In this document: piece after piece, positions 497 to 18,428 of the stretch
Layout: the number at the start of each line of letters is the position of its first letter
How positions within the stretch are numbered: the first letter of the stretch is position 1
Source of the DNA: Oscillospiraceae bacterium
GTDB taxonomy: Bacteria > Bacillota > Clostridia > Oscillospirales > Oscillospiraceae
Direction: 5' to 3'
Length of the DNA: 32,000 nucleotides
Assembly: GCA_017527825.1 (NCBI GenBank)
Contig: JAFXPO010000020.1
Coordinates: forward strand, 1-32,000
Translations under genes and position numbers: made by a program
Notes under the pieces: model-generated
Databases searched by the model: none
What the model was told of the DNA's origin: nothing
The model's input: the letters and a program-made list of their open reading frames with translations, nothing else

Positions 497-524
497 ACCG
501 CTCTTTGAGAAAGGATTATCCAAT

Positions 525-2166: not shown

Positions 2167-2211
2167 TGGAGCTGCTGGGCAGATTCGAACTGCCGACCTC
2201 ATCCTTACCAA
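2167..2211. repeat. att direct repeat, distal copy (displaced 3' 45 nt of tRNA-Thr)
   Basis: tggagctgctgggcagattcgaactgccgacctcatccttaccaa is identical to 18353-18397. The flanking bases differ on both sides. Confidence 0.9.
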
Positions 2212-2433: not shown

Positions 2434-2467
2434 GGCGGCGCAGGAAAGAACCCTGCGCCGCCTTTTT
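2434..2467 (+). terminator. GC-rich hairpin plus T-run at the 3' end of the integrase gene (plus-oriented, possibly bidirectional)
   Basis: ggcggcgcagg (2434-2444), 7-nt loop, cctgcgccgcc (2452-2462), then ttttt. The T-run is on the plus strand and overlaps the integrase stop codon on the minus strand. Confidence 0.5.
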
Positions 2468-3662
2468 ATTCGTTCTGGGCTTTTAGAGCATCCCGGACAA
2501 CCTGACCAGCCCGGCGGATACTATCCTCGTTCGCGTGGGCGTACATTCGGAGCGTGACCGCCGTATCGCTGTGGCCGAGCCGCTCCGAAACGCTGACCAC
2601 ATCGGCCCCGTTCGTGATGGCAAGGCTGGCCGAGGTATGCCGGAGCAGGTGTGGGTGGAAGTTTGGAATGCCGTACCGCTCCCCAAACTTTTTGAAATAG
2701 TGCGTCGGAGACTGCGGGTGCATCGGATCGGCGACCCCATCCACCGTGAACACATAGCGGGAGATGCACGTCGCCGCCTGTTCCTCCCGGAGCTGCCGGA
2801 GCAGTGCCAGCGCGTCTGGGCCGACGTCCACCGTGCGCCCCTTGCCATTCTTCGGAGAGGTCTCATAGACCCCAGCCGCCGGAGTATACTGCAGATTACG
2901 CCGGATCGTGATCACACCCGTGGCGAAATTGATATCCGACCATTGTAGGGCGCACAGCTCACCCTTTCGCGCCCCGGTATCGGCAGCGAGGTTTATATAC
3001 GTCCGCCACTTCAATGGCTCCTGCTCGACGCAGGAGAGGACGCGGCGGAGCTGATCGACCGTCAGCGCCTTCTCGGCCTCGGACTCCGCAACCTCGCCTT
3101 TACGCGGAGCTGGACGCTTCACCTTCAGCATGGGCGAGATTTTGATGCTCTCATCCATGAACGCCATATCAAAGAGGCCGTTCAGGATATTATAGAGCTT
3201 CACCGCCGAGGCGTGGGCTTTGCCGGTTTTTTGGTAGTCCAGTATGAGCTTTGAGATCATGGCCGGAGAGACCTCGACCAGCAGAGCGTCGCCGATCACC
3301 GGCAGGATATACCGATCAAGGAACAGCCGGTAGGAGTACCGGGAGTTCTCGCTGAGAGAGGCTTCCTTCGTCGGCATGAACACCCCGTCCGCGTATTGCC
3401 GGACGGTTTTCAATTTGGCAGCCTCGGCGGCAGCGGCGCGATCCTGCTCCTTCTGCTCGGCTCTGTTCAAGACCTCGCCCTTCCCGCACTGCAGCTCAAA
3501 GGCGGCGGCGACCTTTGCAAGCTCGCGCTCGGCGGCGCGTTTGCTCCACCCTTCAGGCCAGTACCAGCGCTTCGTATATGGCGTTTTGCCGTAACCGCGA
3601 GAAACGGAGATTTTGAAGAACCGCCGCCCGTCCTTCGTTTCCATGAGCTTTGTCGATGCCAT
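2466..3662 (-). CDS. tyrosine-type site-specific integrase (398 aa)
   Basis: Classical motifs are present: TGARKGELCALQWSDI, KNGKGRTV and HPHLLRHTSASLAITNGADVVSVSERLGHSDTAVTLRMYAH. GGGAGGG RBS. The gene is adjacent to an att repeat. Confidence 0.95.
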   Translation of the reverse strand: MASTKLMETKDGRRFFKISVSRGYGKTPYTKRWYWPEGWSKRAAERELAKVAAAFELQCGKGEVLNRAEQKEQDRAAAAEAAKLKTVRQYADGVFMPTKEASLSENSRYSYRLFLDRYILPVIGDALLVEVSPAMISKLILDYQKTGKAHASAVKLYNILNGLFDMAFMDESIKISPMLKVKRPAPRKGEVAESEAEKALTVDQLRRVLSCVEQEPLKWRTYINLAADTGARKGELCALQWSDINFATGVITIRRNLQYTPAAGVYETSPKNGKGRTVDVGPDALALLRQLREEQAATCISRYVFTVDGVADPMHPQSPTHYFKKFGERYGIPNFHPHLLRHTSASLAITNGADVVSVSERLGHSDTAVTLRMYAHANEDSIRRAGQVVRDALKAQNE

Positions 3663-4309
3663 TATTCATCCCTCCCAAAAACAACGAACCGGGCCAATTT
3701 GCGGAACCGAGCGACGGCTTCGCATTCAATGATAGCGGTCGCATAGGCTTCTGATCCCATCGAGTAGCGCCCCAGTTTTTTTAATTCGCGCTCCTTCTGA
3801 AAAACCGAGTCATCCCATGACGGTGCTGCCGAGACCTCAACCGCTTTCCGGCATTCGGAAAGATAGGCAAGCACATCACCAAAGCTGACTACATCGTGAG
3901 ATTGCCCCTGCCGCTCATCAAGAAGCGTTTCGAGAAGCAGCGAGAGGGCTTTCCGCTGGTCTTGATAGTAGCGGCCTTCGGCGTTCAAACTCATTAGAAA
4001 ATCAACGGCTCCTTCGGAGAGGCCAAGAGCTTTGACAGCGGCCTGAATATTTGCGTCGGGGCTTCGGGCGGGAGAGAGGCCACAGAGGTAATCGAGTGAC
4101 ACACCATAAAAAGCTGCGATCTTTATCAAGTTTTCCATCTTAGGATAGGCGATCCCCTGTTTGTACTGGTTAATAGCCTGAACAGAGCAGCCGAGGTGAT
4201 CGGCCAGAGCGTGAGGATCGTCAATGAGATCACGCAATTTCGTCGCAAGGCTCGCCTTCGCCTTTTCAGCAATATCGCTGTCGTAAGTTTTCCTTCCATT
4301 TTCGCCCAT
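3662..4309 (-). CDS. XRE-family HTH repressor-like protein (cI/ImmR-like position)
   Basis: HTH segment LADHLGCSVQAINQYKQGIAYPKMENLIKIAAFYGVSLDYLCG. ATG 4309 follows AGAGGTGA. The stop overlaps the integrase ATG by 1 nt (TAATG), so the two genes look co-transcribed. Confidence 0.8.
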   Translation of the reverse strand: MGENGRKTYDSDIAEKAKASLATKLRDLIDDPHALADHLGCSVQAINQYKQGIAYPKMENLIKIAAFYGVSLDYLCGLSPARSPDANIQAAVKALGLSEGAVDFLMSLNAEGRYYQDQRKALSLLLETLLDERQGQSHDVVSFGDVLAYLSECRKAVEVSAAPSWDDSVFQKERELKKLGRYSMGSEAYATAIIECEAVARFRKLARFVVFGRDE

Positions 4310-4348
4310 CAAATCACCTCTCAAAAAGTAATACTTTCAATTTTCTTT

Positions 4349-4377
4349 ATCTTATCATTCTCACTTTACAATGTCAA
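4349..4377 (-). promoter_or_regulatory. leftward promoter candidate for the repressor-integrase operon
   Basis: On the minus strand: TTGACA (4372-4377), 17 nt, TAAGAT (4349-4354). Confidence 0.5.
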
Positions 4378-4393
4378 GAGGTAGTGATACGAT
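4365..4393 (+). promoter_or_regulatory. rightward early promoter candidate, overlapping the leftward one face to face
   Basis: TTTACA (4365-4370), 17 nt, TACGAT (4388-4393), upstream of the 4430 ORF. Confidence 0.4.
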
Positions 4394-4429
4394 AAAGCAG
4401 AACTATTCAAGAAAGGAGATTTTGAAGTT

Positions 4430-4606
4430 ATGCTTCAGACTGAGAAAAGCGATAAGGCGAGGGAAGCGCAGCGGCAGTACCTCCGCGAATGGAGAAAGAA
4501 GAACAAAGACAAGGTTCGCCAGTACAATGAAAAATACTGGCAGCGGAAGGGTGAGAGCCTTTCAACGGAAAGAGGTGAGCAGGATGCCGAAACGCAGAAA
4601 GGCTAA
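4430..4606 (+). CDS. small basic protein (58 aa), hypothetical
   Basis: GAAAGGAG RBS then ATG 4430. Translation is MLQTEKSDKAREAQRQYLREWRKKNKDKVRQYNEKYWQRKGESL.... It is below the ORF-track length cutoff and was read directly from the sequence. Confidence 0.55.
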   Translation: MLQTEKSDKAREAQRQYLREWRKKNKDKVRQYNEKYWQRKGESLSTERGEQDAETQKG

Positions 4607-4817
4607 CCTTGACGCGCCTCTGCAGACGATCAGCGCCACGAGCTACATCACAGGAGAAAGCCGCACGGCACTGCGGCAGCTTTGCCGCGAAGGGCGAATC
4701 CCTCACGTCCGCCGGGGCGAGGGCAAGAATGCCACCTACCTCATCAATGTGCCTTTGTACCTGAAAATGCTGGACGCGGAAAGCAATTCCAACATCAGAT
4801 CGGAGGCCAGAGTATGA
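4584..4817 (+). CDS. Xis/AlpA-like HTH DNA-binding protein (77 aa)
   Basis: AGAGGTGA RBS then ATG 4584. Translation SYITGESRTALRQLCREGRIPHVRRGEGKNATYLINVPLYLKML. The longer ORF-track start at 4371 runs through the preceding ORF in another frame and is not credible. Confidence 0.6.
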   Translation: MPKRRKANLDAPLQTISATSYITGESRTALRQLCREGRIPHVRRGEGKNATYLINVPLYLKMLDAESNSNIRSEARV

Positions 4818-4973: not shown

Positions 4974-7655
4974 ATGGCAGCAAGGGAAAACGTCGACTTC
5001 GACCAGATCGTCGATTACAGAGCGGAATACTCCGCCATTGTGGAGAAGCACAAGATCATCGGCGACAACCTGACCGGCCTCTGCCCATTTCACAAGGACA
5101 CCAACAACAGTTTCTCGGTCGATCTGAAAACAGGACAATGGCACTGCTTCAGCGAGGACATCGGCGGCAACTTCATATCCTTCTGGGCGAAGTACCGAGG
5201 CATCGACACCAAGGAAGCCTACAAGGAGATACTCGACCGCTACGGCATCCGGCAGGAGGAACGCCCCGCCGAGAAGCCGAAGCAGACCGGCGGAGGGCTG
5301 ATCCCCTACACCATCGAGCAGTACAGCTTCGACAAGCGGCTCCCGGTCGACTTCCTGAAGCAGACGTGCCGTGTCGAGACCGGCAAAGACCGCGACGGCA
5401 CCGAGTACCTGAAGATGCCCTACTTCTTCGAGAACGGGAAACCGGCTGCGACGCGGAAGCGTTACGGTCAGAAAGAGTTCCGCTGGATGAAGGGCAGCAG
5501 GGGAAAGATATGCCTCTACGGTGAGTGGCGGATCGCGGAGATCAGGAAGGTCGGCTGGTGCATTCTGGTAGAGGGCGAGAGCGACACCCAGAGCCTCTGG
5601 TACATGGGCCTCCCCGCCATCGGCGTGGCCGGAGCCTCGATGTTCAAGGCGTACCAGACGATGGTGCTGCAGGGCCTCAAGGTTTACATACACAAGGAGC
5701 CGGACGGCGGAGGCGAGACCTTCTACAAGAAGCTCTGCCATGCGTTCGATGAGACCGGCTTCGACGGTGAGCTGTTCGTGTGGTCGTGCCAGAGCCTCGG
5801 CAAGAAAGACCCATCCGACGTTTACCTCGCCTACGACAAGGACGAAGGAAAGCGCCTGATCCAAGAGGCCCTGAAGAAAGCCAAAGCCGTCGACCTGAAG
5901 CTGGAGCTGCAGGAAGAAACCGCGAGCGGAGCGCCGGTCAGCCTACGCACCCCGAAAGGCTGGAAGCTATCGGACAGCGGCATATTCCTCATAGATGCAA
6001 AGACACGCGCCCCCGTTCTGATCTGCCGAACACCGATCATCCTGACCCGGCGGATCGCCAATCTGGAAACCGGGGAAGAAAAGATCGAAGTTGCGTTCAA
6101 GGATCACGGCGAAGAATGGACACGCGGAGTTTATGCGAGGCACACCGTTTTTTCACGCCAGAGCATCATGGAGCTTGCTAATTCAGGCTGCACCGTCACC
6201 AGCGAGAACGCGAAGAACGTGGTCAAGTTCCTCATGGAGCTGGAGGCAGAAAACTACGATGAAATTCCGACAGCTGTGGCAACGTCATCCTTCGGGTGGC
6301 AGGTCGACAACCGCTTTCTACCCGGATGCGATAAGGAAATAGTTCTCGACATAGACCCTACGCTGAAACCGTTGGCAGCGGCCTATTGCCAGAACGGAAC
6401 CATGGAGCGGTGGATCGAACACATGGCACCGCACCGACAGCGTGACAAGTTCCGCTTCATCCTCGCCGCCTCGTTTGCGGCCCCGCTCCTGCGGATCGTG
6501 AAGCAGCGGATCTTCTTCGTTTACAATTGGGGAGGCTCCAAAGGCGGAAAGACCGCCGCCCTAAAAGCGGCCCTCTCGGCATGGGGAGACCCGGAGCGGC
6601 TCATGGTGAACTTTAACGCCACGCAGGTCGGCCTCGAACGAACCGCCGCCTTCTACTGTGACCTTCCCCTCGGCATCGACGAACGGCAGCTCGCCGGGAA
6701 CAACCAAGGCTCGCTGGAGAAGATCGTCTACATGATCGCCAGCGGCACCGGCAAGATACGCGGAGCCAAAAGCGGCGGCATCCAGACCGTCCAGCAATGG
6801 CGCACCGTGGCGCTGGCCACCGGCGAGGAACCGCTCTCGACCGACACTTCCCAGACCGGCGTCAGCACCCGCGTCTTGGAGCTTTACGGTGGGCCGTTCG
6901 ACAATGAGCAGGATGCCGCCCTCATGCACCAGCAAGCCGCCCTCGACTGTGGCTGGGCTGGCCCCGCCTTCATCGACCACCTCCTGCAGATGGATGAGCG
7001 TGAGATCGTGGAGCAGTACGAGGAAATGCAGACCTACGTCCGCGAAATCAGCAACGGCAAGAACGGCTCCCACATCGCCGGAATCGCCGCCGTTGCCCTC
7101 GCCGACAGCATGATAGATCAGCTATTCTTCGGAGGCTCGCCGGAGCAGAGCCGCGAGGCGGCGAAGCGCATGGCGGCAAGCATCCTGATCAATCAGGTGG
7201 AGAGCAATGCCACCGACGTGAACGAGAACGCGGTGCAGTTCGTAGTCGACTGGGTGCTGGCGAACAAGGCGTACTTCGGCCAGAACGCCGTCGGAACGTG
7301 CCTCGGCTTTACCAGCGACACCGGCAACACCGCCTACATCTTCCCGACCATGCTCAATCAGGCGCTCTCCAAAGCAGGGTACAGCCCCCGGAAAACTATG
7401 AAGTATCTCGCCGAGCGTGAGCTGATCGGCATGACGGTCGAGGGCAGCGGAAAGAAGATATACTCCGTTACAAAATGGTTCGGGAGCCGCTCGGTGAGGT
7501 TCGTCGAGTTCTACATCGGCAAGATCGCCGAGGCAAAAGACCCGATAGACGACGCCGATGAAATCGGCTCCAACCGCGAGAGCGACGCGCCGGAGTACCA
7601 GCAGCAGAGCTTTACTGAACTGACCGACGCGGATCACAAAGAGCTGCCATTCTGA
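4974..7655 (+). CDS. primase-helicase (CHC2 zinc finger + Toprim + P-loop NTPase, DUF927/D5-like)
   Basis: Zinc finger CPFHKDTNNSFSV...WHCF. Toprim ILVEGESDTQSLWYMG...HKEPDGGGE. Walker A NWGGSKGGKTAAL and Walker B-like LPLGIDERQ. Confidence 0.9.
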   Translation: MAARENVDFDQIVDYRAEYSAIVEKHKIIGDNLTGLCPFHKDTNNSFSVDLKTGQWHCFSEDIGGNFISFWAKYRGIDTKEAYKEILDRYGIRQEERPAEKPKQTGGGLIPYTIEQYSFDKRLPVDFLKQTCRVETGKDRDGTEYLKMPYFFENGKPAATRKRYGQKEFRWMKGSRGKICLYGEWRIAEIRKVGWCILVEGESDTQSLWYMGLPAIGVAGASMFKAYQTMVLQGLKVYIHKEPDGGGETFYKKLCHAFDETGFDGELFVWSCQSLGKKDPSDVYLAYDKDEGKRLIQEALKKAKAVDLKLELQEETASGAPVSLRTPKGWKLSDSGIFLIDAKTRAPVLICRTPIILTRRIANLETGEEKIEVAFKDHGEEWTRGVYARHTVFSRQSIMELANSGCTVTSENAKNVVKFLMELEAENYDEIPTAVATSSFGWQVDNRFLPGCDKEIVLDIDPTLKPLAAAYCQNGTMERWIEHMAPHRQRDKFRFILAASFAAPLLRIVKQRIFFVYNWGGSKGGKTAALKAALSAWGDPERLMVNFNATQVGLERTAAFYCDLPLGIDERQLAGNNQGSLEKIVYMIASGTGKIRGAKSGGIQTVQQWRTVALATGEEPLSTDTSQTGVSTRVLELYGGPFDNEQDAALMHQQAALDCGWAGPAFIDHLLQMDEREIVEQYEEMQTYVREISNGKNGSHIAGIAAVALADSMIDQLFFGGSPEQSREAAKRMAASILINQVESNATDVNENAVQFVVDWVLANKAYFGQNAVGTCLGFTSDTGNTAYIFPTMLNQALSKAGYSPRKTMKYLAERELIGMTVEGSGKKIYSVTKWFGSRSVRFVEFYIGKIAEAKDPIDDADEIGSNRESDAPEYQQQSFTELTDADHKELPF

Positions 7656-7678
7656 AAAAGGAACCGCACAACTGACAC

Positions 7679-7883
7679 TTAGATGTTCAGTTAGATGCAA
7701 GGATAGGTGCAAGGCGGAAAAGCCCCGAAAATCAAGGCGTTGTGACATTCTCTTACACCTATTTTATAATTTTTTAAGAGTAAATATTATTTATAGCGTT
7801 TTGCAGAATGTCGAGAAAATCCGACATAATGCAATAAATTTGTAAAAAGCAAGGTATATTTTCGGGATGCAAGGTTTTAGATG
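7679..7883. promoter_or_regulatory. AT-rich non-coding region flanked by short direct repeats (candidate origin and/or late promoter region)
   Basis: G(A/G)TGCAAGG at 7694-7702, 7706-7714 and 7866-7874. TTAGATG at 7679, 7691 and 7877. The AT-rich core at ~7750-7860 contains TGACAT-17-TATAAT (7743-7771) and TTGCAG-18-CATAAT (7801-7830). Confidence 0.4.
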
Positions 7884-7988
7884 TGATGCTGGAAAAGCGG
7901 CGCGAATCACCGAAAATAGACGGTTTCCGAGCATTTTACCTTTTCGGAATAGCTGTCAGGGAGCCGCCAGCAAGGAGGCGGAGCAGAA

Positions 7989-8642
7989 ATGAAGATGCAG
8001 TCAGACAACGCCATGATCAGCGTCGAGCTGGATGCGGATATGCTGCAGATGGTCGACAAGGCCCTCGGCGGTTTGAAAAGCGAGAGCCGGAAGGTGCTGA
8101 AAAAAGCCATCAACACGACCGCGAAACAGGCAAAGAAAGACCTGATCAGCAAGGCCAGAGAGGAATACACGGTCAAGGCATCCGTGCTGAACAAGGCGAC
8201 CCAGAAGCACAATGCCACCGTTTCCAATTTGGAGGCGACCATCGAGGTCGAGAGCGCGACGCGGGAGCTGACGGACTTCAAGACCAGAGTATCGAAGCAG
8301 GGAGTCAAGGCCCAGATTTTGAAAAGCAGCTCCATGAAGCTGCTCCAATCCCAGAGGGGCAATCGGGCCAAGGCGTTTATGACCAAGTTCGAGAGTGGCC
8401 ATCAGGCCATCGTTCAGAGGCAGGAAGGACAGACGTACAAGACGGCCAAGGGCCGACAGAAGCGCATGGAGAAGTATGGCCCCCACGCCGACATGACCCA
8501 GATCAAAAAGCTGCTGGCGGTCTCGGCTCCCAAGATGATCGGCAGCGAGAAAAGGGTGTTCGGTATCCTGCGCCCGACGATATACGAGAACCTCATGACA
8601 AACATTCAAAAGGAGATCGACAAGACGCTGGCCTCTCGGTGA
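7989..8642 (+). CDS. phage minor tail protein Z-like / tail completion protein (217 aa)
   Basis: AAGGAGG RBS. The overall pattern (LKSESRKVLKKAINTTAKQAKKDLISKAREEYTVK ... FKTRV ... AFMTKFESGHQAIVQRQ ... IKKLLAVSAPKM) resembles the lambda gpZ family. It lies upstream of the chaperone and tape measure genes. Confidence 0.55.
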   Translation: MKMQSDNAMISVELDADMLQMVDKALGGLKSESRKVLKKAINTTAKQAKKDLISKAREEYTVKASVLNKATQKHNATVSNLEATIEVESATRELTDFKTRVSKQGVKAQILKSSSMKLLQSQRGNRAKAFMTKFESGHQAIVQRQEGQTYKTAKGRQKRMEKYGPHADMTQIKKLLAVSAPKMIGSEKRVFGILRPTIYENLMTNIQKEIDKTLASR

Positions 8643-8840
8643 GCGGCGGAGCCGGAGGCCCAGCGCATAGGCGCAGCCTCTGCAGAGGCACCCAGCACCC
8701 CCCACCCCCACCGTAGGTACTACCGACGCCCCCTCCCCAATGCGGGGCGAGGAAGGCGCGAAAGTTTGCTCCGTAAAATCAAAATTTTTTCCGGCGTTTC
8801 GTTACGCGAACCCTACATATCCCATTTTGGAGGCGAGAAA

Positions 8841-9182
8841 ATGGAGAACCAGAACGTCAGCCATGTGTTGAAATTAAGCCAGCCCTACACCTTCCGAGAC
8901 CAGTCATATGCAGAAATCAACCTCTCCGGCATGGAGAATATGACCGCCGCCGACATGATCGCCGCCGAGGCATACCTGATCCACGAGGGGCTGTTCACGA
9001 CTGAAAAAGAGGACACATTAGAGTACAGTTTTTTCATTGCAAGCCGATTTTCAGGGCTTCCAATGCAGTTTTTTATGCAGTTTAAGCCAAAAGATGCCGC
9101 CCGGTTAAGGGCGGCAGTCAAGGAATACATGGGCAGCGATGCCGACGAAGGGAGCGGTGAACGACATGGCAAAAACAAATAA
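8841..9182 (+). CDS. phage tail assembly chaperone-like protein (113 aa)
   Basis: GGAGG RBS then ATG 8841. It lies immediately upstream of, and overlaps, the tape-measure gene. The pattern YAEINLSG...TAADMIAAEAY...FSGLPMQFFMQFKPKDAARLRAAVKEYM resembles the gpE/gp41-type chaperones. Confidence 0.55.
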   Translation: MENQNVSHVLKLSQPYTFRDQSYAEINLSGMENMTAADMIAAEAYLIHEGLFTTEKEDTLEYSFFIASRFSGLPMQFFMQFKPKDAARLRAAVKEYMGSDADEGSGERHGKNK

Positions 9183-11655
9183 AGAGTACGAGCTGGCAAT
9201 AAAGATCGCCGGGAAGATCGACCCTTCCCTTGGCGCTTCGGCCAAAAAGGCGGCGAGTACCCTCTCCAAGCTGGGCGGAGCCGTTGGCACGATGGCCAAG
9301 GCGGCAGGAATTGCCATCGGAGCGGCAACCACGGCAGCGGTCGCGTTCGCAAAGAGCGCCGTCGATGCGGGAATGCAGTTCGACTCGGCCATGTCGCAGG
9401 TCGCCGCGACGATGGGAACCACCGTCGACCAGATCGACCAGCTGCGGGACTTCGCCATGGAGATGGGCAGCAAGACCGCTTTCTCCGCTTCAGAGGCGGC
9501 GGAGGCCCTGAACTTCATGGCGCTGGCCGGATACGATGCACAGACCTCCATGGCGATGTTGCCGAACGTCCTTAATCTTGCCGCTGCCGGTACGATGGAG
9601 CTGAAGGATGCCTCGGATATGATTACCGACGCGCAGAGCGCCCTCGGCCTCTCGTTGGAGCAGACCAGCGCAATGGTCGACCAGATGGCGCGAGCGTCCT
9701 CCAGAACCAACACCAGCGTCTCACAGCTCGGCGAGGCGATCCTCACCGTCGGCGGCACGGCCCAGTACATGGCCGGAGGCACCAACGAACTCAGCACCGT
9801 TCTCGGTGTTCTGGCCGACAACGGCATCAAGGGCAGCGAGGGCGGAACGCACCTCCGCAATATGCTCCTGAAGCTCTCCTCGCCGACAGCAGACGCAACC
9901 AAGCTGTTAAACCGGCTCGGCGTTCAGGTGTTCGACGCGGAAGGGAATATGCGGAGCTTCACCGAGGTATTCCCGGAGCTGAACGCCGCCATGGCCGACA
10001 TGACCGACCAAGAGCGGCTCGACGCAATGGCTACGCTGTTCAATTCCCGTGACATCGCCTCCGCAACAGCACTGCTTGGAACCACCACCGAGCGCTGGGA
10101 GGAACTGACCGCCGCGATAGAGGACAGCGCCGGAGCCGCCGAGCAGATGGCCAACACCCAGCTCGACAACCTCGCTGGCGACATCACGCTGTGGAAATCG
10201 GCACTGGAAGGAGCGCAGATCACGCTCTCCGACCAGCTGACCCCGACGCTGCGGCAGTTCGTCCAGTTCGGAACCAGCGGCATTACGCAGCTATCCGATG
10301 CATTCAAGGAGGGCGGACTGAGCGGAGCCATGGAGGCGTTCGGCTCTATTTTGAGCGACGGCCTGAACATGGTGATCGCGGCGCTGCCAGAGATGGTGGA
10401 CGCAGGAATGCAGCTCCTCGGAGCGCTGGGCGAGGGCATCATAGCGAACCTTCCCGTGCTCACTGATGCAGTGGTGGAGATCGTTTTAATGTTTGTGGAT
10501 GGGATTGCAAAGGCGCTTCCTCAAATTGCCGCTGCATTGCCGGTAATCTTGGCGACTCTTGCAAACGGAATCGCTGATGCGCTGCCAGAACTCATACCAG
10601 TATTGGTGGAATCATTTTTACAGATATTTGATGCGCTTCTCGATCCTAGAACATTTGATACTTTGCTCAACGGAACAATACAACTCGCAGTCGGGCTGGT
10701 TAACGGCGTGATCGAGGCGCTCCCCAGCATTGTCGCCAGAATTCCGGCATACCTCGCTTACCTCTCAGGCGCGCTTTTGTCAGACGCGGCTTTCCGTGCC
10801 ATGCCCGCGGTGATCGAAGCGATTAAGAGCGTGCTCCTGCAACTAAAAGACGTAATGGTCGAATTGCTCAGGCCCATAGTTGATGAAATGACTGCCGCTT
10901 TTGGACTGGCGTGGGAAGCAATAAAATACATTTTCGCCCCGGTCGGCGAGTTCTTCTCCGGCGTTTGGAGCGGCATCAAGGGAGCCTTCGGAGCGGTGAC
11001 GGACTGGTTCTCCGGCGTTTTCACCGACGCATGGACAGCGGTCAAGGACGTGTTCAGCAAAGGCGGCGAGATTTTCACCGGCATCGTGGACGGCATCCTC
11101 GACGGCTTTAAGGTCGTGGTGAACGGCATCATCGGAGGGCTGAACGCCGTGATCAAGGTACCTTTCAACGGCATCAACACGGCGCTCCGCACCATCCGCG
11201 ACATCAACATCCTCGGCGTTACCCCGTTCAGCTGGATCACCGAGATCGGCGTCCCGCAAATCCCCATGCTGGCGGAGGGCGGCGTGGTCAACCAAGCCAC
11301 AACCCTGATTGCTGGCGAAGCAGGAAGCGAGGCCATCGTCCCGCTTTCAGAGCTGTGGGCGCAGCTGCAGGACATGATCTCCGACAGCATCGGCGGCGCG
11401 AGCGACAGGATCGCCGACCTTCTCACGGAGCTGGACGGTACTGGCAGCGAGGGAGAGGCGGAGCAACACGATAGCAGCGGCGTCATGTACCAGATCACCT
11501 ACAGCCCGGAGAACCATTATCATTTCGATAGCAGCGCACCCAGCAGCGAGGACATTGCGGGAGCGGAGCGCATGAGTCAGGATGAATTCAATCGCAAGAT
11601 GGCGCAGTGGATGAAAGACGCGGCCCGAAAAGGTTTCAGCCCGGTAATGGCCTAA
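9166..11655 (+). CDS. phage tail tape measure protein, TP901-family core (829 aa)
   Basis: N-terminal core FAKSAVDAGMQFDSAMSQVAATMG...EMGSKTAFSASEAAEALNFMALAGYD...RTNTSVSQLGEA...GSEGGTHLRNMLLKL...LFNSRDIASATALL. C-terminal LAEGGVVNQATTLIAGEAGSEAIVPL. Confidence 0.9.
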   Translation: MAKTNKEYELAIKIAGKIDPSLGASAKKAASTLSKLGGAVGTMAKAAGIAIGAATTAAVAFAKSAVDAGMQFDSAMSQVAATMGTTVDQIDQLRDFAMEMGSKTAFSASEAAEALNFMALAGYDAQTSMAMLPNVLNLAAAGTMELKDASDMITDAQSALGLSLEQTSAMVDQMARASSRTNTSVSQLGEAILTVGGTAQYMAGGTNELSTVLGVLADNGIKGSEGGTHLRNMLLKLSSPTADATKLLNRLGVQVFDAEGNMRSFTEVFPELNAAMADMTDQERLDAMATLFNSRDIASATALLGTTTERWEELTAAIEDSAGAAEQMANTQLDNLAGDITLWKSALEGAQITLSDQLTPTLRQFVQFGTSGITQLSDAFKEGGLSGAMEAFGSILSDGLNMVIAALPEMVDAGMQLLGALGEGIIANLPVLTDAVVEIVLMFVDGIAKALPQIAAALPVILATLANGIADALPELIPVLVESFLQIFDALLDPRTFDTLLNGTIQLAVGLVNGVIEALPSIVARIPAYLAYLSGALLSDAAFRAMPAVIEAIKSVLLQLKDVMVELLRPIVDEMTAAFGLAWEAIKYIFAPVGEFFSGVWSGIKGAFGAVTDWFSGVFTDAWTAVKDVFSKGGEIFTGIVDGILDGFKVVVNGIIGGLNAVIKVPFNGINTALRTIRDINILGVTPFSWITEIGVPQIPMLAEGGVVNQATTLIAGEAGSEAIVPLSELWAQLQDMISDSIGGASDRIADLLTELDGTGSEGEAEQHDSSGVMYQITYSPENHYHFDSSAPSSEDIAGAERMSQDEFNRKMAQWMKDAARKGFSPVMA

Positions 11656-11777: not shown

Positions 11778-12515
11778 ATGGCCACGAATGAAGAACTCGT
11801 TTTAACAATTCAGGCAGGTGAACGTAACCGCCTTCCGGAGCTTTGGAAGCAGGTGGAGCGGTTCGCACGAATGATGGCGCGGAGGCGCGTCAACCTCGCG
11901 GGAGAACTGGGAGGGGCCACGGTTCAGGATTTGTACCAATCGGGCTACATAGCTCTCGTAGAGGCTGCCGAAACATGGTCGGCAGCTCCCGGATATAAAT
12001 TTTTGACGTGGTATGAGTTCTACCTAAAAACTGCATTTGCCGAGGCCGGAGGGTACCGAAGCGACAAGCAGGCCCATGATCCGCTCCAACACGCAGCGAG
12101 TCTTGACGCGCCAGCTGGTGAGGATGCTGATGGTGATGCGCTGATCGACCTCGTACCTGCCACAAACGACCCCATCGCCGAGATCGAGGAACAGGTATAC
12201 AATGAGCAGCTCCACGATGCACTGGAAACCGCTCTGCGGCAGCTCCCCTCGGATGAAGAAGTGGTCATAAGGGCGATATACTACGAGGGGAAAACCCTCC
12301 GCGAGATTGGCCCACGGGCCAAGGATGTACAGCAGCGAGCATTGGAACACCTGCGCCGTCCGCTGGTCAGCCGCGATCTGCGCCAATTCATCGAGTTGCG
12401 AGTTCCCAGATATCAAATAGGCCGAGGGTTCAGTTATACCCGCGTTTCAGCGGATGAACTGGCCTCTATGCTGCGAGATCGGACGAAAACACCGGCTGCT
12501 TATGCAGGGAGATAG
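11778..12515 (+). CDS. sigma-70 family RNA polymerase sigma factor (ECF-like, 245 aa)
   Basis: Region 2-like DLYQSGYIALVEAAETW...FLTWYEFYLKTAF. Region 4-like LPSDEEVVIRAIYYEGKTLREIGPRAKDVQQRALEHLRR. AAGGGAGG RBS. Confidence 0.8.
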   Translation: MATNEELVLTIQAGERNRLPELWKQVERFARMMARRRVNLAGELGGATVQDLYQSGYIALVEAAETWSAAPGYKFLTWYEFYLKTAFAEAGGYRSDKQAHDPLQHAASLDAPAGEDADGDALIDLVPATNDPIAEIEEQVYNEQLHDALETALRQLPSDEEVVIRAIYYEGKTLREIGPRAKDVQQRALEHLRRPLVSRDLRQFIELRVPRYQIGRGFSYTRVSADELASMLRDRTKTPAAYAGR

Positions 12516-12526
12516 GAGAAAATAAA

Positions 12527-12946
12527 ATGGTAACCATGCCTCAGACCCGAAAAGATGTTAAAGAGCGGCTCCGCATTTACCGCCGAGCCGAGGCCCAAAG
12601 AATTATTCTGATTGAGCGGCGCGAGAAGATGCTGGCAGAGTTGCGGCAAACGAACACAGACCCAAGAACACCGAACCATGCCCTTGATGAGATCAGCGCA
12701 ACGCTGACATCCCAAATCAGGGAGCAGGACAACATGATGCTGGAGGCCGTGGAGCTTATGGCACGTCTGCCCTCTGGCTCTATGGAGAGGATCATCGTAG
12801 AGCTGCGGCATATCGAGGGCCTGAGCTGGGCTGAAATTTCTAGTGCGCTCAGTTTGAGCAAAAGCCCCCTATTTGCTTACTACGGCAACGCCCTCGATAT
12901 GTTGGGAGAGAGCCTGTCAGCTGAGAACAAAGCTCCGTCAACGTAG
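12527..12946 (+). CDS. sigma region-4-only / RinA-ArpU-DUF1492-like phage transcriptional regulator (139 aa)
   Basis: C-terminal RIIVELRHIEGLSWAEISSALSLSKSPLFAYYGNALDML looks like a sigma-70 region 4 HTH. AGGAGA RBS. Confidence 0.55.
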   Translation: MVTMPQTRKDVKERLRIYRRAEAQRIILIERREKMLAELRQTNTDPRTPNHALDEISATLTSQIREQDNMMLEAVELMARLPSGSMERIIVELRHIEGLSWAEISSALSLSKSPLFAYYGNALDMLGESLSAENKAPST

Positions 12947-13457: not shown

Positions 13458-13730
13458 TCAAAAGAGATCGCTGTGCGTTCCCGTTCGCATCAGGTACAGC
13501 ACCAGCTCCGTATCGTCGACCTCGTAGACCAGCAGCCAGTCCGGCGTGATGTGGCATTCACGACACCCGGCATAGTCGCCCTGCAGATCGTGATCCTTGT
13601 ACTGCGGAGGCAGCGGCTGACCGTCGGCCAGAATGGCGATCACCGCCTCCAAGAGCCGGAGATCGTACCCGCGCTTTTTGATGCGCTTATAGTCCCGCTT
13701 GAATTTGGATTGATAGCTAATCGTCAGCAT
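13458..13730 (-). CDS. type II toxin, YafQ/RelE-family mRNA interferase (90 aa)
   Basis: KRDYKRIKKRGYDLRLLEAVIAILADGQPLPPQYKDHDLQGDYAGCRECHITPDWLLVYEVDDTELVLYLMRTGTHSDLF matches the YafQ-family hallmarks (H.L.G......RE.HI.PDWLL.Y ... RTG.HSDLF). Confidence 0.9.
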   Translation of the reverse strand: MLTISYQSKFKRDYKRIKKRGYDLRLLEAVIAILADGQPLPPQYKDHDLQGDYAGCRECHITPDWLLVYEVDDTELVLYLMRTGTHSDLF

Positions 13731-13935
13731 TCAGATCCTCCATCAGCTCCGCCACGGAGGAAAAGCGTCTGCTTATCCCGATCCCGTTCCGAGCGTCCTC
13801 AATGGCCTTGGCCGTTTCCGCATTCGGAACCTCGGCCCCCTCGGCGGCGATGCCCTGAACATAGGCGAGGATATAACCCAGCTTGTGTTCCGGCACGACA
13901 TCAAGCAGAGAAATGATCTGCTCCCGGTTACTCAT
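13717..13935 (-). CDS. antitoxin with DinJ-like C-terminal toxin-binding segment (72 aa)
   Basis: AAAGGTGA RBS then ATG 13935. The C-terminus PNAETAKAIEDARNGIGISRRFSSVAELMEDLNADD parallels the E. coli DinJ C-terminus (PNQLTIQSIKNSEAGIDVHKAKDADDLFDKLGI). There is a 14-nt overlap with the toxin start. Confidence 0.7.
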   Translation of the reverse strand: MSNREQIISLLDVVPEHKLGYILAYVQGIAAEGAEVPNAETAKAIEDARNGIGISRRFSSVAELMEDLNADD

Positions 13936-14158
13936 CACTTTCACCTTTCCTTTCCTCTGGCGCGTACTCCAGAATATCCCCCGGCTGGCAACCGAGCAAT
14001 TCACAGATGCGCCCGATGTTCGCCCACGACACGAGGTTCCCCGTTCGGAGCTGCTGGATCGTACTCTCGGCGAGCAGCTTCTCCCGCCGGAGGTTGGTAG
14101 TATTGTGGCCGCTTGCTTTGAGAGCGGCCAGCACGTTTACTTTGTACTGCACAGGCAT
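13928..14158 (-). CDS. XRE-family (HTH_26/YozG-like) small transcriptional regulator (76 aa)
   Basis: VNVLAALKASGHNTTNLRREKLLAESTIQQLRTGNLVSWANIGRICELLGCQPGDILEY. AAGGGGGA RBS. It overlaps the antitoxin start by 8 nt. Confidence 0.85.
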   Translation of the reverse strand: MPVQYKVNVLAALKASGHNTTNLRREKLLAESTIQQLRTGNLVSWANIGRICELLGCQPGDILEYAPEERKGESDE

Positions 14159-14218: not shown

Positions 14219-14247
14219 ATTTTAGCACAGTATTACACAGAAATCAA
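14219..14247 (-). promoter_or_regulatory. leftward promoter candidate of the XRE-antitoxin-toxin operon
   Basis: On the minus strand: TTGATT (14242-14247), 17 nt, TAAAAT (14219-14224). Confidence 0.55.
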
Positions 14248-14323
14248 GTGTAAATAGTACCCAAAGATTACACCAAAACCTTGTGCAATACTCCATATTG
14301 CAATACACAGAAATATGGTGTAA
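14233..14323. promoter_or_regulatory. three phased 21-bp dyad operator-like sites (TTACAC-N9-GTGTAA)
   Basis: Site 1 is 14233-14253, TTACAC agaaatcaa GTGTAA (perfect). Site 2 is 14268-14288, TTACAC caaaacctt GTGCAA. Site 3 is 14303-14323, ATACAC agaaatatg GTGTAA. The starts are spaced exactly 35 bp apart. Sites 1 and 3 overlap the two divergent promoters. Confidence 0.7.
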
Positions 14324-14540: not shown

Positions 14541-14816
14541 ATGACAGACAAGCAGCTGAACAACAGGATCGCCAAGCTCCAGGGCATCGAGGCCCAGATG
14601 AAGGAGCTGGAGGACGCCGCCGAGAAGATCAGAACCGAGATCAAGGCTGACCTCGAAGCGAAGGGTGAGGACGAACACAACACCGGCAGCTTCATCATCC
14701 GCTGGAAAGAGATCATCAGCCGCCGCCTCGACAGCAAGGCCCTCAAAGCAGCCCTGCCGGACGTGTTCACCGCCTACAGCAAGGAGAGCAGCACCCGCCG
14801 CTTCTCCATCGCGTGA
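14541..14816 (+). CDS. hypothetical coiled-coil protein (91 aa)
   Basis: GAAAGGAG RBS then ATG 14541. The composition is protein-like. I recognised no family. Confidence 0.6.
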   Translation: MTDKQLNNRIAKLQGIEAQMKELEDAAEKIRTEIKADLEAKGEDEHNTGSFIIRWKEIISRRLDSKALKAALPDVFTAYSKESSTRRFSIA

Positions 14817-14827
14817 GGGTGCCGACC

Positions 14828-14971
14828 ATGCCGACCGGCACCATGATCCTGACGATCCTCGGCGCGATCCACGCCACAGCGCAGCTGATGCACCTGATCG
14901 AATGGCTCGACACGCCGCACACAAAGAAAGCCCCACACCCGGACAGGCCGACCAAAGCAAGCCGAGTGTGA
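14828..14971 (+). CDS. small hydrophobic-N-terminus peptide (47 aa), hypothetical
   Basis: ATG 14828 lies 12 nt after the previous stop. Translation MPTGTMILTILGAIHATAQLMHLIEWLDTPHTKKAPHPDRPTKASRV. It is below the ORF-track cutoff and has only a weak RBS (GAGGGTG). Confidence 0.3.
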   Translation: MPTGTMILTILGAIHATAQLMHLIEWLDTPHTKKAPHPDRPTKASRV

Positions 14972-15066
14972 AGCCACAAGACCAGCACCCACGGGGGAGC
15001 CGGTACCGCCATTATACCGGCTCCCCTTCGGAAAAACAAGAAGAATTTCGAGGAGGAACAACAGAA

Positions 15067-15525
15067 ATGGAAATTACCAATACCCTGAATCTGGAACAGG
15101 CCAATGCCCTTTTCGACACAGAGGCGGTATTCATGTGCAGAACCAATGTGATCCCCGAATATAGGGTAGTGGAACTCTTTGGCGATGATATGGCCGAATG
15201 GCTCGACAAATGCTGCCGCCACGACGGATATATGAAAGGCGGCGCGGACTACAACCTCGTGGGCGACACCCACCAAACGATAAGGGTTTTCTATCGGGCG
15301 GGATTTTACAAGATAGCCGGCAAGGCAAACTATAAGCTCACGCTTCAATCGCATCGGAATTGTGACGCTGGAAAGCTGATAGATGCGATTTCAGAGGAAC
15401 GGAGCCAGGAGCTTGCGCGACAGGATGCGGAGTATGAACGTAAGTTGGCGGAGCGCCGTGCAAAGCGAGCGGCAGCGAAAGCAGCCAAGACGCAGGAATC
15501 CTCGGCAGCCTCCAACCAAGGCTGA
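15067..15525 (+). CDS. hypothetical protein (152 aa) with basic Ala/Lys-rich C-terminus
   Basis: GAGGAGG RBS then ATG 15067. The upstream part of the 14665 ORF-track entry is Arg/Pro/Ala-rich frame noise. Confidence 0.65.
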   Translation: MEITNTLNLEQANALFDTEAVFMCRTNVIPEYRVVELFGDDMAEWLDKCCRHDGYMKGGADYNLVGDTHQTIRVFYRAGFYKIAGKANYKLTLQSHRNCDAGKLIDAISEERSQELARQDAEYERKLAERRAKRAAAKAAKTQESSAASNQG

Positions 15526-15585
15526 TACATCGGAATCAGAACACATACCCCGCCCCGGAGGTCACGAGGGCAGAAAGGATTTGAG

Positions 15586-15816
15586 ATGAGCGCGAAGAAC
15601 ACCAAAGAGCAGAGTTACATGATCACAAACGAGCTGGGAACCATCACCGGCAAAATGAGGGCGCTGACCGGCCTCCTTTTTACGATCCACAGCAACATGA
15701 CCGACGGCGGCGACATCGCGGAGTCAGTTTATGTGGCCAGCGGTTACCTCGAACAGCTGGTGCAGGACTTGGAGAACGTCACCGCCGAGGTGCAGGATGC
15801 ACTAAAAGCCGAGTGA
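15586..15816 (+). CDS. hypothetical protein (76 aa)
   Basis: AAAGGA RBS. The composition is protein-like and a terminator hairpin follows. Confidence 0.55.
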   Translation: MSAKNTKEQSYMITNELGTITGKMRALTGLLFTIHSNMTDGGDIAESVYVASGYLEQLVQDLENVTAEVQDALKAE

Positions 15817-15822
15817 GCGCCG

Positions 15823-15869
15823 AGGCGGCGACGGCCCAGCAGGGAGCGAGCGCCGCCTTTCTCCTTTTC
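15823..15869 (+). terminator. rho-independent terminator
   Basis: aggcggcg (15823-15830) pairs with cgccgcct (15851-15858), followed by ttctcctttt. Confidence 0.55.
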
Positions 15870-15933
15870 AGAATAAGCACCCGCCCTCCCTTGTCGACGT
15901 GGCCACGTAGCCCCGGCGGCAGGGGAGGGCTTT

Positions 15934-16363: not shown

Positions 16364-18193
16364 ATGAAGAAATTAATCTCCCTGCTGCTGGCCATGACGC
16401 TGGCGGCGACCTGTGCGCTCCCTGCCGGAGCCGTGGACGATGAAGAAGCCGAGGCCAGCCCAGCCCCGGTCACGGTCACCACGGCGGAGGAACTGCTGGA
16501 GGCAATCGAAGCCGCCGAGGACGGCGATACGATCCTCATAGGAGCCACGATCTGCCCCGCTTTTGGTACAACCATCGGAAGTTCCGAAAAGCGGATAACT
16601 CTCGCAAGAGCCAATGAATTTCGCAACAGTATTATGTTTTCGTGCATCTTTTCAGCGGCGTTTGAAAATTTGACCTTTGACGGAAGCGGTTCTGATGTTC
16701 AATGCCTAACCATTTTTGCGGATGTACATTTTTACGGGGTTACCGTACAGAATACCAACACTTCCGGGATCGTGGTGGCCAGCGGAAACCCAGCATTTGA
16801 GGATTGCACATTCGAAAACAACTCCGCGTCTAAAGGCGGACACCTTCTGATAAAAAGCCGAGCGGGAGCGACAATCAGGAACTCTTCTTTTTTCAATGGC
16901 GCCTCGACAATGCAGGGAGGTGGTGCAATCTCGAATAGTGGTGACCTTAACATTACCGACTGCACTTTTATAGGAAATGCAACAACCGGCAACGGTGGAG
17001 CAATCAGCACATCTGGACGATGCAGGATAGAAGGCTGCACAATAATCGGAAACAGTGCATCCGCCGCAGGTGGGGGAATCCACTGCGTAGGCAGCCTCGA
17101 AATATCCGACAGCGTAATCTACGGAAATACGGCCCAGATGCGCGGCGCAGATATTGCTTCATCCGGCGAATTAGAACTATCCATATCCGGCGACGATTTA
17201 AGCGAGGTTTATCAAATTGAAGGAAGAATGCCGCTCGGCTTCTATTGTGATGCTTCTGATGGGCGCTTCAACGGCGAGACAAATGTGACTGAGAACAAAC
17301 CTCTCCCGATCAGCAAAGAAAGCGGAGTTTTGGATTTAATCTTTGTATTTACAGATGAGATTATTGTCCAAGATGATGAGCAACAGGTAGAGCCAGTGCA
17401 GGAGCCAGATCAACAGGAGCCAGAGGAACCAGCTCAACCTTCGGAGCCGGAAGCGCCCCAAGGGCAGGAGCAGCCGGAAGAACCGGCACAAGAACCCACA
17501 TCGGAGCCGGAGCCTGAACCAGAGCAACCGAGCGCCTCCGTCGCGCCGCCGAGTGTGGTACCGCCGAGCTACACACCCAGCCGAAGCAACACGCGCTCCT
17601 CCGAGGATAGCGTCACTTCGGAATCGGAATCGGAACCGGCACCCGCCCCGGCAGAACAGGCGCAGCCGGAGGCTGCAGCTCCCGCGCTCTCCTGCGGCGG
17701 AGCGGCGCTCGACACGTCGGGCCGTGCCTTCCTCGCTGGGTATGGTGATGGCGTGATCGGCGAGGATGATCCAGTCACCCGCGCCCAGATCGCCCAGATC
17801 ATCTACCGCCTCATGACCGATGAAAGCCGGGAGGCATTACAGACCACAGAGAACAGCTTCGAGGACGTACCCGCCGAGGCATGGTATAACCTCGCCGTCA
17901 GCACGATAGCTCGCGCCGGAATCGTGGTCGGTACCGGCGACGGCTTCCACCCGGAGGGCTACATCACGAGGGCGCAGCTCATCACAATCATGGCCCGGTT
18001 CATCGCCCCGGCAGAACAGGAAAGCAGCTACGCCGACGTGACCGGCCACTGGGCCGAGAGCTTCATCGGAACGGCAGAGGCCGCCGGATGGCTGACCGGC
18101 GGAGGCGACCTCCGTCCGAACGAGTACATTAGCCGCCGCGAGGTCGTGGAGTTCATCAATCACGTTTTCGATCTCTGCGAGGAAGCAGCGTAG
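16364..18193 (+). CDS. secreted cell-surface protein: signal peptide, right-handed beta-helix repeats, Pro/Glu-rich linker, C-terminal SLH domains (609 aa)
   Basis: Signal peptide MKKLISLLLAMTLAATCALPAGA. Repeated GGAI/GN motifs (QGGGAISNSGDLNITDCTFIGNATTGNGGAISTSGRCRIEGCTIIGNSASAAGGGIHC). Linker EPVQEPDQQEPEEPAQPSEPEAP.... SLH-like segments FLAGYGDG...TRAQIAQIIYRL, FEDVPAEAWY...TRAQLITIMARF and YADVTGHWAESFI. Confidence 0.85.
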   Translation: MKKLISLLLAMTLAATCALPAGAVDDEEAEASPAPVTVTTAEELLEAIEAAEDGDTILIGATICPAFGTTIGSSEKRITLARANEFRNSIMFSCIFSAAFENLTFDGSGSDVQCLTIFADVHFYGVTVQNTNTSGIVVASGNPAFEDCTFENNSASKGGHLLIKSRAGATIRNSSFFNGASTMQGGGAISNSGDLNITDCTFIGNATTGNGGAISTSGRCRIEGCTIIGNSASAAGGGIHCVGSLEISDSVIYGNTAQMRGADIASSGELELSISGDDLSEVYQIEGRMPLGFYCDASDGRFNGETNVTENKPLPISKESGVLDLIFVFTDEIIVQDDEQQVEPVQEPDQQEPEEPAQPSEPEAPQGQEQPEEPAQEPTSEPEPEPEQPSASVAPPSVVPPSYTPSRSNTRSSEDSVTSESESEPAPAPAEQAQPEAAAPALSCGGAALDTSGRAFLAGYGDGVIGEDDPVTRAQIAQIIYRLMTDESREALQTTENSFEDVPAEAWYNLAVSTIARAGIVVGTGDGFHPEGYITRAQLITIMARFIAPAEQESSYADVTGHWAESFIGTAEAAGWLTGGGDLRPNEYISRREVVEFINHVFDLCEEAA

Positions 18194-18352: not shown

Positions 18353-18428
<76 letters not shown>

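Follow-up and report, generated by a model that had tools for sequence, protein, structure and literature searches.

A 16.2-kb element of an Oscillospiraceae gut bacterium carrying a phage-type cos site and its own neck, chaperone and tape measure genes is probably a phage satellite

We have identified, in a 32,000-nucleotide window from an Oscillospiraceae gut bacterium (GenBank assembly GCA_017527825.1, contig JAFXPO010000020.1, positions 1 to 32,000), a 16,186 bp unit flanked by perfect 45-nt direct repeats at a tRNA-Thr gene. This element carries a copy of the cohesive-end packaging site (cos) of phages related to Faecalibacterium phage FP_Epona, and three structural genes, coding for a gpZ/Neck1-like protein (Z), a tail assembly chaperone (TAC) and a tape measure protein (TMP). 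It is probably an active 16.2-kb satellite whose helpers are temperate, contractile-tail phages of the FP_Epona type with cos packaging and a lambda-gpA-type terminase, and the three genes would represent its own tail and neck parts. Taken by themselves, the packaging of the element as a satellite by a helper phage is very likely, while the incorporation of TMP, TAC and Z into particles has something just short of an even chance. The features that matter most to this interpretation are the following, with all positions referring to the window:

2167..2211 (no strand): attL core, 45 nt, 100% identical to 18353-18397; corresponds to the 3' part of tRNA-Thr
18353..18397 (no strand): attR core, within tRNA-Thr(GGT) 18353-18428 (-)
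2466..3662 (-): tyrosine integrase, 398 aa; PF00589, E 4.5e-28; phrog_1, E 1e-61
3662..4309 (-): HTH_3 repressor-like regulator, divergent from the excisionase side; PF01381, E 1.3e-9; phrog_8, phrog_4
4584..4817 (+): Cox-like excisionase, 77 aa; phrog_575, E 4e-4
4974..7655 (+): primase-helicase, 893 aa (CHC2 zinc finger, DUF927 and Cch HTH); PF01807, PF06048, PF18662; phrog_8841, E 2e-177
7989..8642 (+): gpZ/Neck1-like gene (Z)
8713..8807 (+): cos block
8841..9182 (+): TAC
9166..11655 (+): TMP (reading frame open from 9139)
11778..12515 (+): sig1, sigma-70-family protein, 245 aa; PF04542, PF04545; TIGR02937, 55 bits; phrog_351
12527..12946 (+): sig2, small ECF/ArpU-like late regulator, 139 aa; PF07638, PF08281; phrog_36, phrog_248

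The initial annotation, made by reading the sequence, had described an integrase, repressor, divergent excisionase and primase-helicase layout followed by a gpZ-like gene, a TAC and a full-length TP901-type TMP at 7989-11655 and then by sigma-like genes, and searches of Pfam and PHROGs, with TIGR01760 for the TMP, confirm this throughout. It had also recognised no terminase, portal, capsid, protease, major tail, baseplate or lysis gene; hidden Markov model searches agree, and with Pfam, PHROGs and PADLOC no terminase, portal, capsid, protease, sheath, tube, baseplate or lysis gene was found among the remaining open reading frames (ORFs) of the element. The TMP, which is 829 aa long from the ATG at 9166 and 838 aa if translated from 9139, is of the TP901 type and matches PF10145 (E 4e-45, 154.7 bits against a cut-off of 33.2), TIGR01760 tape_meas_TP901 (207.5 bits, cut-off 28.8) and many TMP PHROGs. 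Its alignment with phage TMPs of 837-839 aa runs from one end to the other, the identity over the full length being 80%, 72% and 68% to phage TMPs of 839, 837 and 839 aa, respectively, and the two closest of these sit in full myophage tail modules. The TAC (113 aa) matches PF10109 (E 1e-6) and phrog_3140 (E 9e-20); its true start is the ATG at 8841, which has a ribosome-binding site (RBS), and not 8766, and its stop overlaps the start of the TMP gene. For Z (217 aa) there is a full-length match to phrog_27, 'tail completion or Neck1 protein' (E 9e-20). The Z protein itself has no Pfam match at E of 0.01 or better; its homologues of 44-64% identity bear PF06763 (Minor_tail_Z) and are located in myophage neck modules between Hc1-like and Tc1-like genes. 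Its fold matches in BFVD are annotated 'Minor tail protein' (E 6e-7) and its AlphaFold model is of moderate quality (predicted local distance difference test score, pLDDT, 68); at an E threshold of 0.001 Foldseek gave no match to the PDB, and searching PDB sequences with a profile gave nothing either. Of the structural genes, only Z occurs in all variants of the element. The tight coupling initially ascribed to the three genes does not hold for Z and TAC, which are 198 nt apart with the cos site lying between them.

The only cultured relative is FP_Epona (49,573 bp), with which the proteins of the element share the following amino acid identities:

primase-helicase and gp22: 63%
Z and gp43 (Ne1): 42%
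TAC and gp48: 41%
TMP and gp49: about 30%
sig2 and gp31 (small sigma factor, encoded just upstream of cos): 32%

Across the wider set of related phages the identities reach 42-64% for Z, 39-47% for TAC, up to 80% for TMP and 32-46% for sig2, the phage homologue of which matches the same PHROGs as sig2 itself, and the primase-helicase is 59-74% identical to phage primases from IMG/VR. The homologues of Z of 44-64% identity are all found in complete contractile-tail prophages. To judge from these protein similarities, the modules of the element are clearly of Epona-like phage origin. Their arrangement is a different one. In the phages the head genes run TerL (lambda gpA type), portal, S78 protease, capsid, cement, Hc1-like and Z, and are followed by a 154-aa gene, a 92-aa gene, sheath, tube, TAC, TMP, tail X and baseplate; Z is thus separated from TAC-TMP by ~2.8 kb with four genes in between, and cos is elsewhere. 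Because of this separation the structural genes of the element are a non-contiguous selection from the phage, and the order Z-cos-TAC-TMP-sig1-sig2 is unobtainable from the phage order by deletions alone. An intact prophage with a syntenic Z, chaperone and TMP block had been considered as a possible source; homologues of the three genes do occur in intact phages, but there Z does not adjoin TAC-TMP. The initial suggestion of a simple deletion derivative of a prophage is therefore not compatible with the gene order, and no full prophage at this att site was present among the contigs and loci examined.

Within the stretch that separates Z from TAC, the ~95-nt block at 8713-8807 shares 76-87% identity with an intergenic block of all the related phages. 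In these it is located between the late sigma gene and the methylase-terS-TerL(GpA) genes and is better conserved than the genes flanking it. The block of the element contains the 12-nt cohesive-end sequence GGGCGAGGAAGG at 8745-8756, and its conserved flanks are GTAGGTACTAC (8713-8723) and TTTCGTTACG (8797-8806). An exact-pattern scan located the block in 74 IMG/VR contigs, and those that could be annotated were phages of the Epona-like type. Two of the contigs (L064 and L065) end exactly at ...GCGGGGCGAGGAAGG (...GGAAGG), three others (L097, L095 and L092) begin at GGGCGA(T)GGAAGGCGCG (GGGCGA.GGAAGG), and the three starts and two ends overlap by exactly 12 nt, GGGCGAGGAAGG. Such an exact overlap is the expected product of filled-in 5' cohesive ends, the cohesive end of lambda being GGGCGGCGACCT. 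Given the 12-nt overlap of the contig ends and the gpA-family terminase of these phages, we take the block to be the cos site of the Epona-like phage family. An nhmmer profile built from the phage cos sites recovers the window copy at E 3e-23, as a single copy in the window. The ATG of TAC lies 35 nt 3' of the block, and the first late gene of the phages, which has an RBS, starts at the same distance; the block probably also contains a late promoter for the downstream genes. No second copy of its promoter-like part was found in the window, where weak matches were at chance expectation. IMG/VR contigs of ~25 kb carrying the cos motif were considered as half-genome satellites and dropped, annotation having identified them as partial phage contigs.

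A circular form, or a head-to-tail repeat, was found in other metagenomes. Contig L128 (16,392 nt, assembled at k = 141) has an exact 141-nt terminal overlap and so closes into a 16,251-bp circle, in which the attP core and cos each occur once. Contigs L014 and L125 show the same junction, running from the gene for a cell-surface SLH protein at the right end of the element through attP into the integrase gene, and in all three contigs the 45-mer att core is present once, as attP. A 76-aa protein of the element is unchanged on 17 contigs, of which nine belong to the 10-20-kb class and five are chromosomal; the chromosomal copies all occupy the same site next to birA. The lineage has diversified, with synonymous divergence (dS) of up to about 1.4 and conservation of the same architecture, and Z is kept in all variants across this range (dS ~1.4; ratio of non-synonymous to synonymous rates, dN/dS, 0.07). 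Over seven copies (three alleles) the three structural genes contain no stop codon and no indel. The TMP gene has 69 synonymous against 19 amino-acid-changing polymorphic codons in these seven copies, and its dN/dS between copies is 0.043 (42 synonymous and 6 non-synonymous differences). Between copies, the dN/dS values are 0.13 and 0.07 for Z and 0.21 for TAC; for the integrase the value is 0.05 against L014 and L017, and the values for the structural genes are similar to those of the integrase, primase and sigma genes. The three genes are under purifying selection. Of the two readings offered by the initial annotation it is therefore that of a hitchhiking element which the cos copy, the 16.25-kb circle with attP, the diversified lineage and the purifying selection favour, the cos copy being decisive among these.

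Three units of the element (3 x 16,186-16,251 bp) amount to 48.6-48.8 kb, which is 0.97-1.05 of the length of eight motif-bearing phage contigs (46.2-50.2 kb) and 0.98 of that of FP_Epona. A variant without TAC-TMP, L125, is still 16,005 nt long (as a contig) owing to a 1.46-kb insertion. By arithmetic, this size pattern would fit cos-to-cos packaging of trimers into unmodified heads. The insertion itself (L125, JGI Ga0256405_10007666, 8014-9474) lies between the genes for the 152-aa and the 76-aa protein, contains several small ORFs (99, 89, 87 and 175 aa) and restores the element to ~16 kb.

The sig1 gene has a distribution of its own. No homologue was present in FP_Epona or in the fetched phage loci, and 50,697 phage records gave one weak match, while 281 homologues were found in metagenomes, many of them on 10-17-kb contigs. 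A profile scan of species-representative genomes returned 23 islands in Oscillospiraceae metagenome-assembled genomes (Faecousia, Lawsonibacter and Oscillibacter), and the sig1 islands found in this genome collection are distant only (37-49% identity). In most islands with enough upstream sequence sig1 is preceded by an integrase at a distance of a few kb (up to ~9 kb). The sig1 gene marks a wider family of small Oscillospiraceae islands, two of which (L116 and L117) carry the same cos family as the element. Three islands (L113, L117 and L121) have different primases and a lone TMP gene directly upstream of sig1; the encoded TMPs, of 719, 705 and 858 aa, respectively, belong to different PHROG families, and downstream of sig1 there is cargo only (methylases, HNH nuclease, DEAD helicase, HAAS/DUF4097), with no structural genes. 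As a lone TMP next to sig1 recurs on different backbones, we argue that this arrangement is selected. In another, distant sig1 locus (L124, 7843-9165) the gene just upstream of sig1 encodes a terminase large subunit (phrog_2, E 5e-46) in place of a TMP or a replication protein. The sig1 family is thus also found beside packaging genes, possibly in true phages.

In the life cycle that we propose, induction of the helper or infection by it would lead to excision of the satellite by its integrase and excisionase and to its replication by its own primase-helicase. The helper TerS/TerL would cut the satellite DNA and package it from cos to cos, and three units would fill a normal helper head, making remodelling of the capsid unneeded, as in PICMIs or P4 sid mutants. 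TAC-TMP would be switched on together with the late genes of the helper, probably by the helper sigma factor or by the satellite sig2 and sig1; this co-expression is suggested by the TAC start, which lies 35 nt 3' of the cos/late-promoter block in the position of the first late gene of the helper. The satellite TMP, held by the short chaperone, and the Neck1 protein would then be built into tails otherwise made by the helper, matching what is known of PLE and ICP1. Since the short TAC does not have a frameshift extension, the long chaperone form of the helper would still be needed. The benefit is probably not one of tail length, because the satellite TMP is as long as its nearest phage counterparts; with 829-838 aa in the element and 837-839 aa in the closest phage TMPs, the tail-length remodelling envisaged by the initial annotation finds no basis. 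More likely the TMP would free the satellite from, or make it immune to, an agent directed at the TMP of the helper; alternatively it could make the tail compatible with satellite-filled heads.

It should be said that a number of observations weigh against this scenario. A whole-element search of INPHARED gave the FP_Epona primase and one att-core match only and did not find the element; it was not found in IMG/VR either, and the genome that carries it yielded no helper prophage. The size argument is drawn from three element variants, and for the ~15.3-kb variant L016 three units make up only 92% of FP_Epona. Packaging, trimer packaging and the incorporation of TMP and Z are all steps that we infer. 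The three structural genes, which had been described as intact, are indeed all present and open, but the TAC does not have the programmed-frameshift extension of its phage counterparts. In the TAC genes of five phages examined a slippery T_TTT_TTC occurs ~21 nt before the stop and is followed by an extension of ~50 codons in the -1 frame, and in the element (window and L013) there is neither slippery site nor -1 extension, leaving the short form only; this loss could be an early stage of decay. The programmed-frameshift arrangement is that of G/GT in lambda and E/E' in P2. TAC of the element has a single slippery heptamer in frame (9029); a -1 shift there was considered as a G/GT equivalent and rejected, as it adds just 16 codons. 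The purifying selection signal could, furthermore, come partly from phage alleles imported by recombination, and divergence along the element is mosaic (dS 0.18 for Z, 0.07 for TMP and 0.01 for sig1).

The variants called lineage II (L016/L017 and L125; primase 81-84% and sig1 71-82% identical to the window) count on the same side. They keep Z and cos and are without TAC-TMP, which was deleted once: L125 retains 25 codons from the start of TAC and 26 from the end of TMP, and L016 shares the deletion junction. Lineage II is nonetheless still diversified and still shows the attP junction. Because it retains the remnants of the deletion and yet persists, TAC-TMP is ancestral, and is dispensable for persistence. 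In lineage II a 111-aa ORF is translationally coupled to Z (L016 4465-4800; L125 2138-2470), which the window does not have; by size and position it would fit phage Hc1, but no similarity was found by BLASTP or PHROGs and it is not regarded as Hc1.

These same observations can be read as signs of a reductive remnant, i.e., a phage-derived island, perhaps mobilisable through cos, in which Z, TAC and TMP are leftovers without a role and heading for loss. In favour of such an island, all the shared modules come from Epona-like phages, a sister lineage persists with mere remnants of TAC-TMP after their deletion, and TAC no longer has its frameshift extension. The substitution pattern is not what would be expected of roleless genes, with 42 synonymous against 6 non-synonymous differences in TMP, 69 against 19 polymorphic codons over seven copies, no stop or indel, and Z retained in all variants across dS ~1.4 at a dN/dS of 0.07. 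Furthermore, deletions alone cannot yield the gene order, and a lone TMP stands next to sig1 in three unrelated island backbones. We regard a remnant of this kind as quite improbable. Slightly less so, though still unlikely, is a role in interference, in which Z, the frameshift-less TAC and the TMP would act as poison or competitor subunits that spoil helper tails as a population-level defence. Partner proteins of the helper could be titrated away by a TMP that has diverged to 80% identity or less, together with a chaperone without the tube-recruiting extension, and a block of tail assembly by satellites or PICIs is known elsewhere, from the Tai systems (PMC11364771) and from Rta of PLE11 (PMC12987554). 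The transfer of the satellite itself would, however, need functional tails, no separate rescue factor was recognised, and in PLE, the only case tested, the satellite TMP enters tails and promotes transduction (PMC12987554).

The assignment of the cos site has its own alternative, namely that the 95-nt block is a shared late promoter or regulatory site only and that the element moves by a route other than packaging by a helper. The block does lie directly upstream of the first late gene of the phages and of TAC in the element, with RBS and ATG equidistant in the two, and the phage late sigma has a homologue among the genes of the element. On the other hand, five independent viral contigs start or end at the same 12 nt, with their two sides overlapping by exactly 12 nt, the terminase of the phages is of the lambda-gpA type, and the block could well serve as cos and promoter at once; we consider the promoter-only explanation highly unlikely. 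Our preferred interpretation thus remains that of an active, cos-packaged satellite bearing its own tail and neck genes.

The remaining features of the element include regulatory sequences, a toxin-antitoxin module and cargo:

4345-4397: inverted repeat I1, 26 nt, in the divergent promoter region beside the HTH_3 repressor gene
4430-4606: 58-aa ORF preceding the Cox-like excisionase
13458-13730, 13717-13935 and 13928-14158 (-): RelE/YafQ toxin, putative antitoxin and HTH_26 regulator, respectively; phrog_7251, E 4.5e-36; PF15738, PF05016, PF13443
14541..16266 (+): small accessory ORFs (91, 47, 152 and 76 aa) and a DUF6431 protein (110 aa), unassigned as to function
16364..18193 (+): secreted beta-helix/SLH cell-surface protein, 609 aa; PF00395, E 5e-19

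The excisionase is 82% identical at the amino acid level in L014 and L016. The 334-nt gap between the primase-helicase gene and Z (7656-7988) contains several short repeats, both direct and inverted (GATGCAAGG in three copies; CCCGAAAAT/ATTTTCGGG), and may act as a promoter or as the origin of replication; in lineage II only ~30 nt of it are conserved. The toxin, antitoxin and HTH_26 regulator are 97-99% identical across element variants that otherwise differ by ~20%, which suggests either recent exchange of the module or a strongly conserved addiction module. Between the HTH_26 gene and the 91-aa ORF, which diverge from each other (14234-14323), a partly palindromic 20-nt repeat, TACACAGAAATCAAGTGTAA, occurs three times at a spacing of 35 nt, and these repeats look like operator sites. 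Among the accessory ORFs at 14541-16266 no structural, packaging or defence family was matched and PADLOC gave no defence system; an Rfam search of the window returned two tRNAs only. The SLH/beta-helix protein is the most divergent gene product among copies of the element, with 53-64% amino acid identity (dN/dS ~0.3) in elements that are otherwise 80-99% identical and adjoining genes at 95-100%. It may represent diversifying cargo acting, for example, in cell-surface modification or phage exclusion. To the left of attL, at 290-2018 (+), a second and unrelated tyrosine integrase (497 aa; PF14659, PF00589) follows an HTH_17 excisionase-like gene and points toward the same 45-nt core; the contig begins there, and these genes seem to mark one end of a further island inserted in tandem into the same tRNA-Thr gene. 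The att core also has a 100% match in an unannotated 11.5-kb 'Bacteriophage sp.' from human faeces (INPHARED MT836267.1, 5589-5641), which may be another element using the same attachment site.

The initial annotation knew of no satellite acting on tails, a statement now outdated by two reports. The PLE satellites of Vibrio cholerae phage ICP1 encode their own TMP, TAC and baseplate hub, which replace those of ICP1; the chimeric tails are ~10 nm shorter and the PLE TMP is 95 aa shorter than that of ICP1, and putative tmp genes in other satellites are presented in Extended Data Fig. 10 of the same work (Mathur, Boyd et al., Nature 2026; PMC12987554). Like the PLEs, the element would be a satellite of a contractile-tail phage with its own TMP and TAC, while sheath, tube and further tail parts would be supplied by the helper. 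It differs from them in its host, which belongs to a different phylum, in its tyrosine integrase at a tRNA, its DUF927 primase-helicase and its pair of sigma genes, and in combining Neck1/gpZ with TMP and TAC, the baseplate hub (BhuB) family being matched in no ORF. Judged by family matches and not by PLE sequences, no capsid-remodelling (TcaP-like) or Rta-like gene was recognised. The predicted helper is moreover temperate and cos-packaging, with the element bearing a copy of the cos, and the TMP, with its putative role in helper tails, has the same length as its nearest phage relatives. The second report concerns the EPIPs of Mycolicibacterium aichiense, satellites with a TMP for which the authors suggest an effect on tail morphology (bioRxiv Dec 2025; PMC12822802). 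Unlike the element, EPIPs encode terS, a head-tail adaptor and stopper, a scaffold, a major capsid protein and a serine integrase, and they were isolated as longer-tailed particles, whereas no change in tail length would be expected for the element.

With the cos-type PICIs (SaPIbov5 family, EcCICFT073; PMC5052747, PMC6092414) the element shares a size in the 10-18 kb range, att sites, a copy of the helper cos and no terminase, and, as in PICIs, the integrase, divergent regulators, excisionase and primase-replicase are arranged in this order at one end. PICIs are defined as being without structural genes except for capsid-remodelling homologues such as Ccm, unlike the element with its three neck and tail genes; there is in turn no recognisable capsid-size or TerS-redirecting gene in the element, but there is the sigma-like pair. 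P4 and its helper P2 provide a parallel in the helper-type cos, the size of one third of the helper genome and the presence of an own primase-helicase, and sig1/sig2 could cross-activate the late genes of the helper in the manner of P4 delta. P4 without Sid is packaged as multimers in full-size heads. No homologue of Sid, Psu, delta or epsilon was matched in the element, however, its cos is of the Epona/lambda-gpA type and not of the P2 type, P4 has no tail genes, and hosts and integrase targets differ. Concatemers are packaged in helper-size heads without capsid remodelling by the PICMIs of Vibrionaceae (PMC10803314), which resemble the element in that it has no capsid-remodelling genes and that the 3:1 size ratio would point to concatemer packaging; unlike the element, PICMIs are ~5-7 kb in size, have no structural genes and depend on virulent helpers. 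The element has the features by which satellites are generally recognised, namely predicted integration/excision and replication functions of its own, no virion gene set and a helper-type cos. By analogy it would work like a cos-type PICI or P4 in packaging and probably resembles a PLE in its tail. We do not file it as a classical PICI, P4-like or PLE member; we treat it as a new satellite variant outside the named families.

In our interpretation the element extends the PLE/ICP1 finding of 2026, that of a satellite's own tape measure and chaperone in helper tails, to Gram-positive gut commensals and temperate cos phages. It also makes a satellite-helper pair concrete, with the cos defined to the nucleotide, exact att sites and a closed circle, and its 3:1 size ratio with the helper provides a simple test case for multimer packaging free of remodelling. 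The variants that keep or have lost TAC-TMP, together with the three unrelated islands with a lone TMP, represent a natural comparison on the value of owning a TMP. More speculatively, and with a probability well below even, it could be the first recognised member of a widespread satellite family of Oscillospiraceae (Faecalibacterium group) which combines a satellite-specific sigma factor with a helper-type cos, has one third of the size of its helper, is packaged as a trimer without capsid remodelling, and has repeatedly and independently recruited a lone TMP, with or without chaperone and neck protein, beside the sigma gene. If this were true, satellite particles could bear a TMP that is not that of the helper and could, for example, escape TMP-directed exclusion or immunity in lysogens of the helper.

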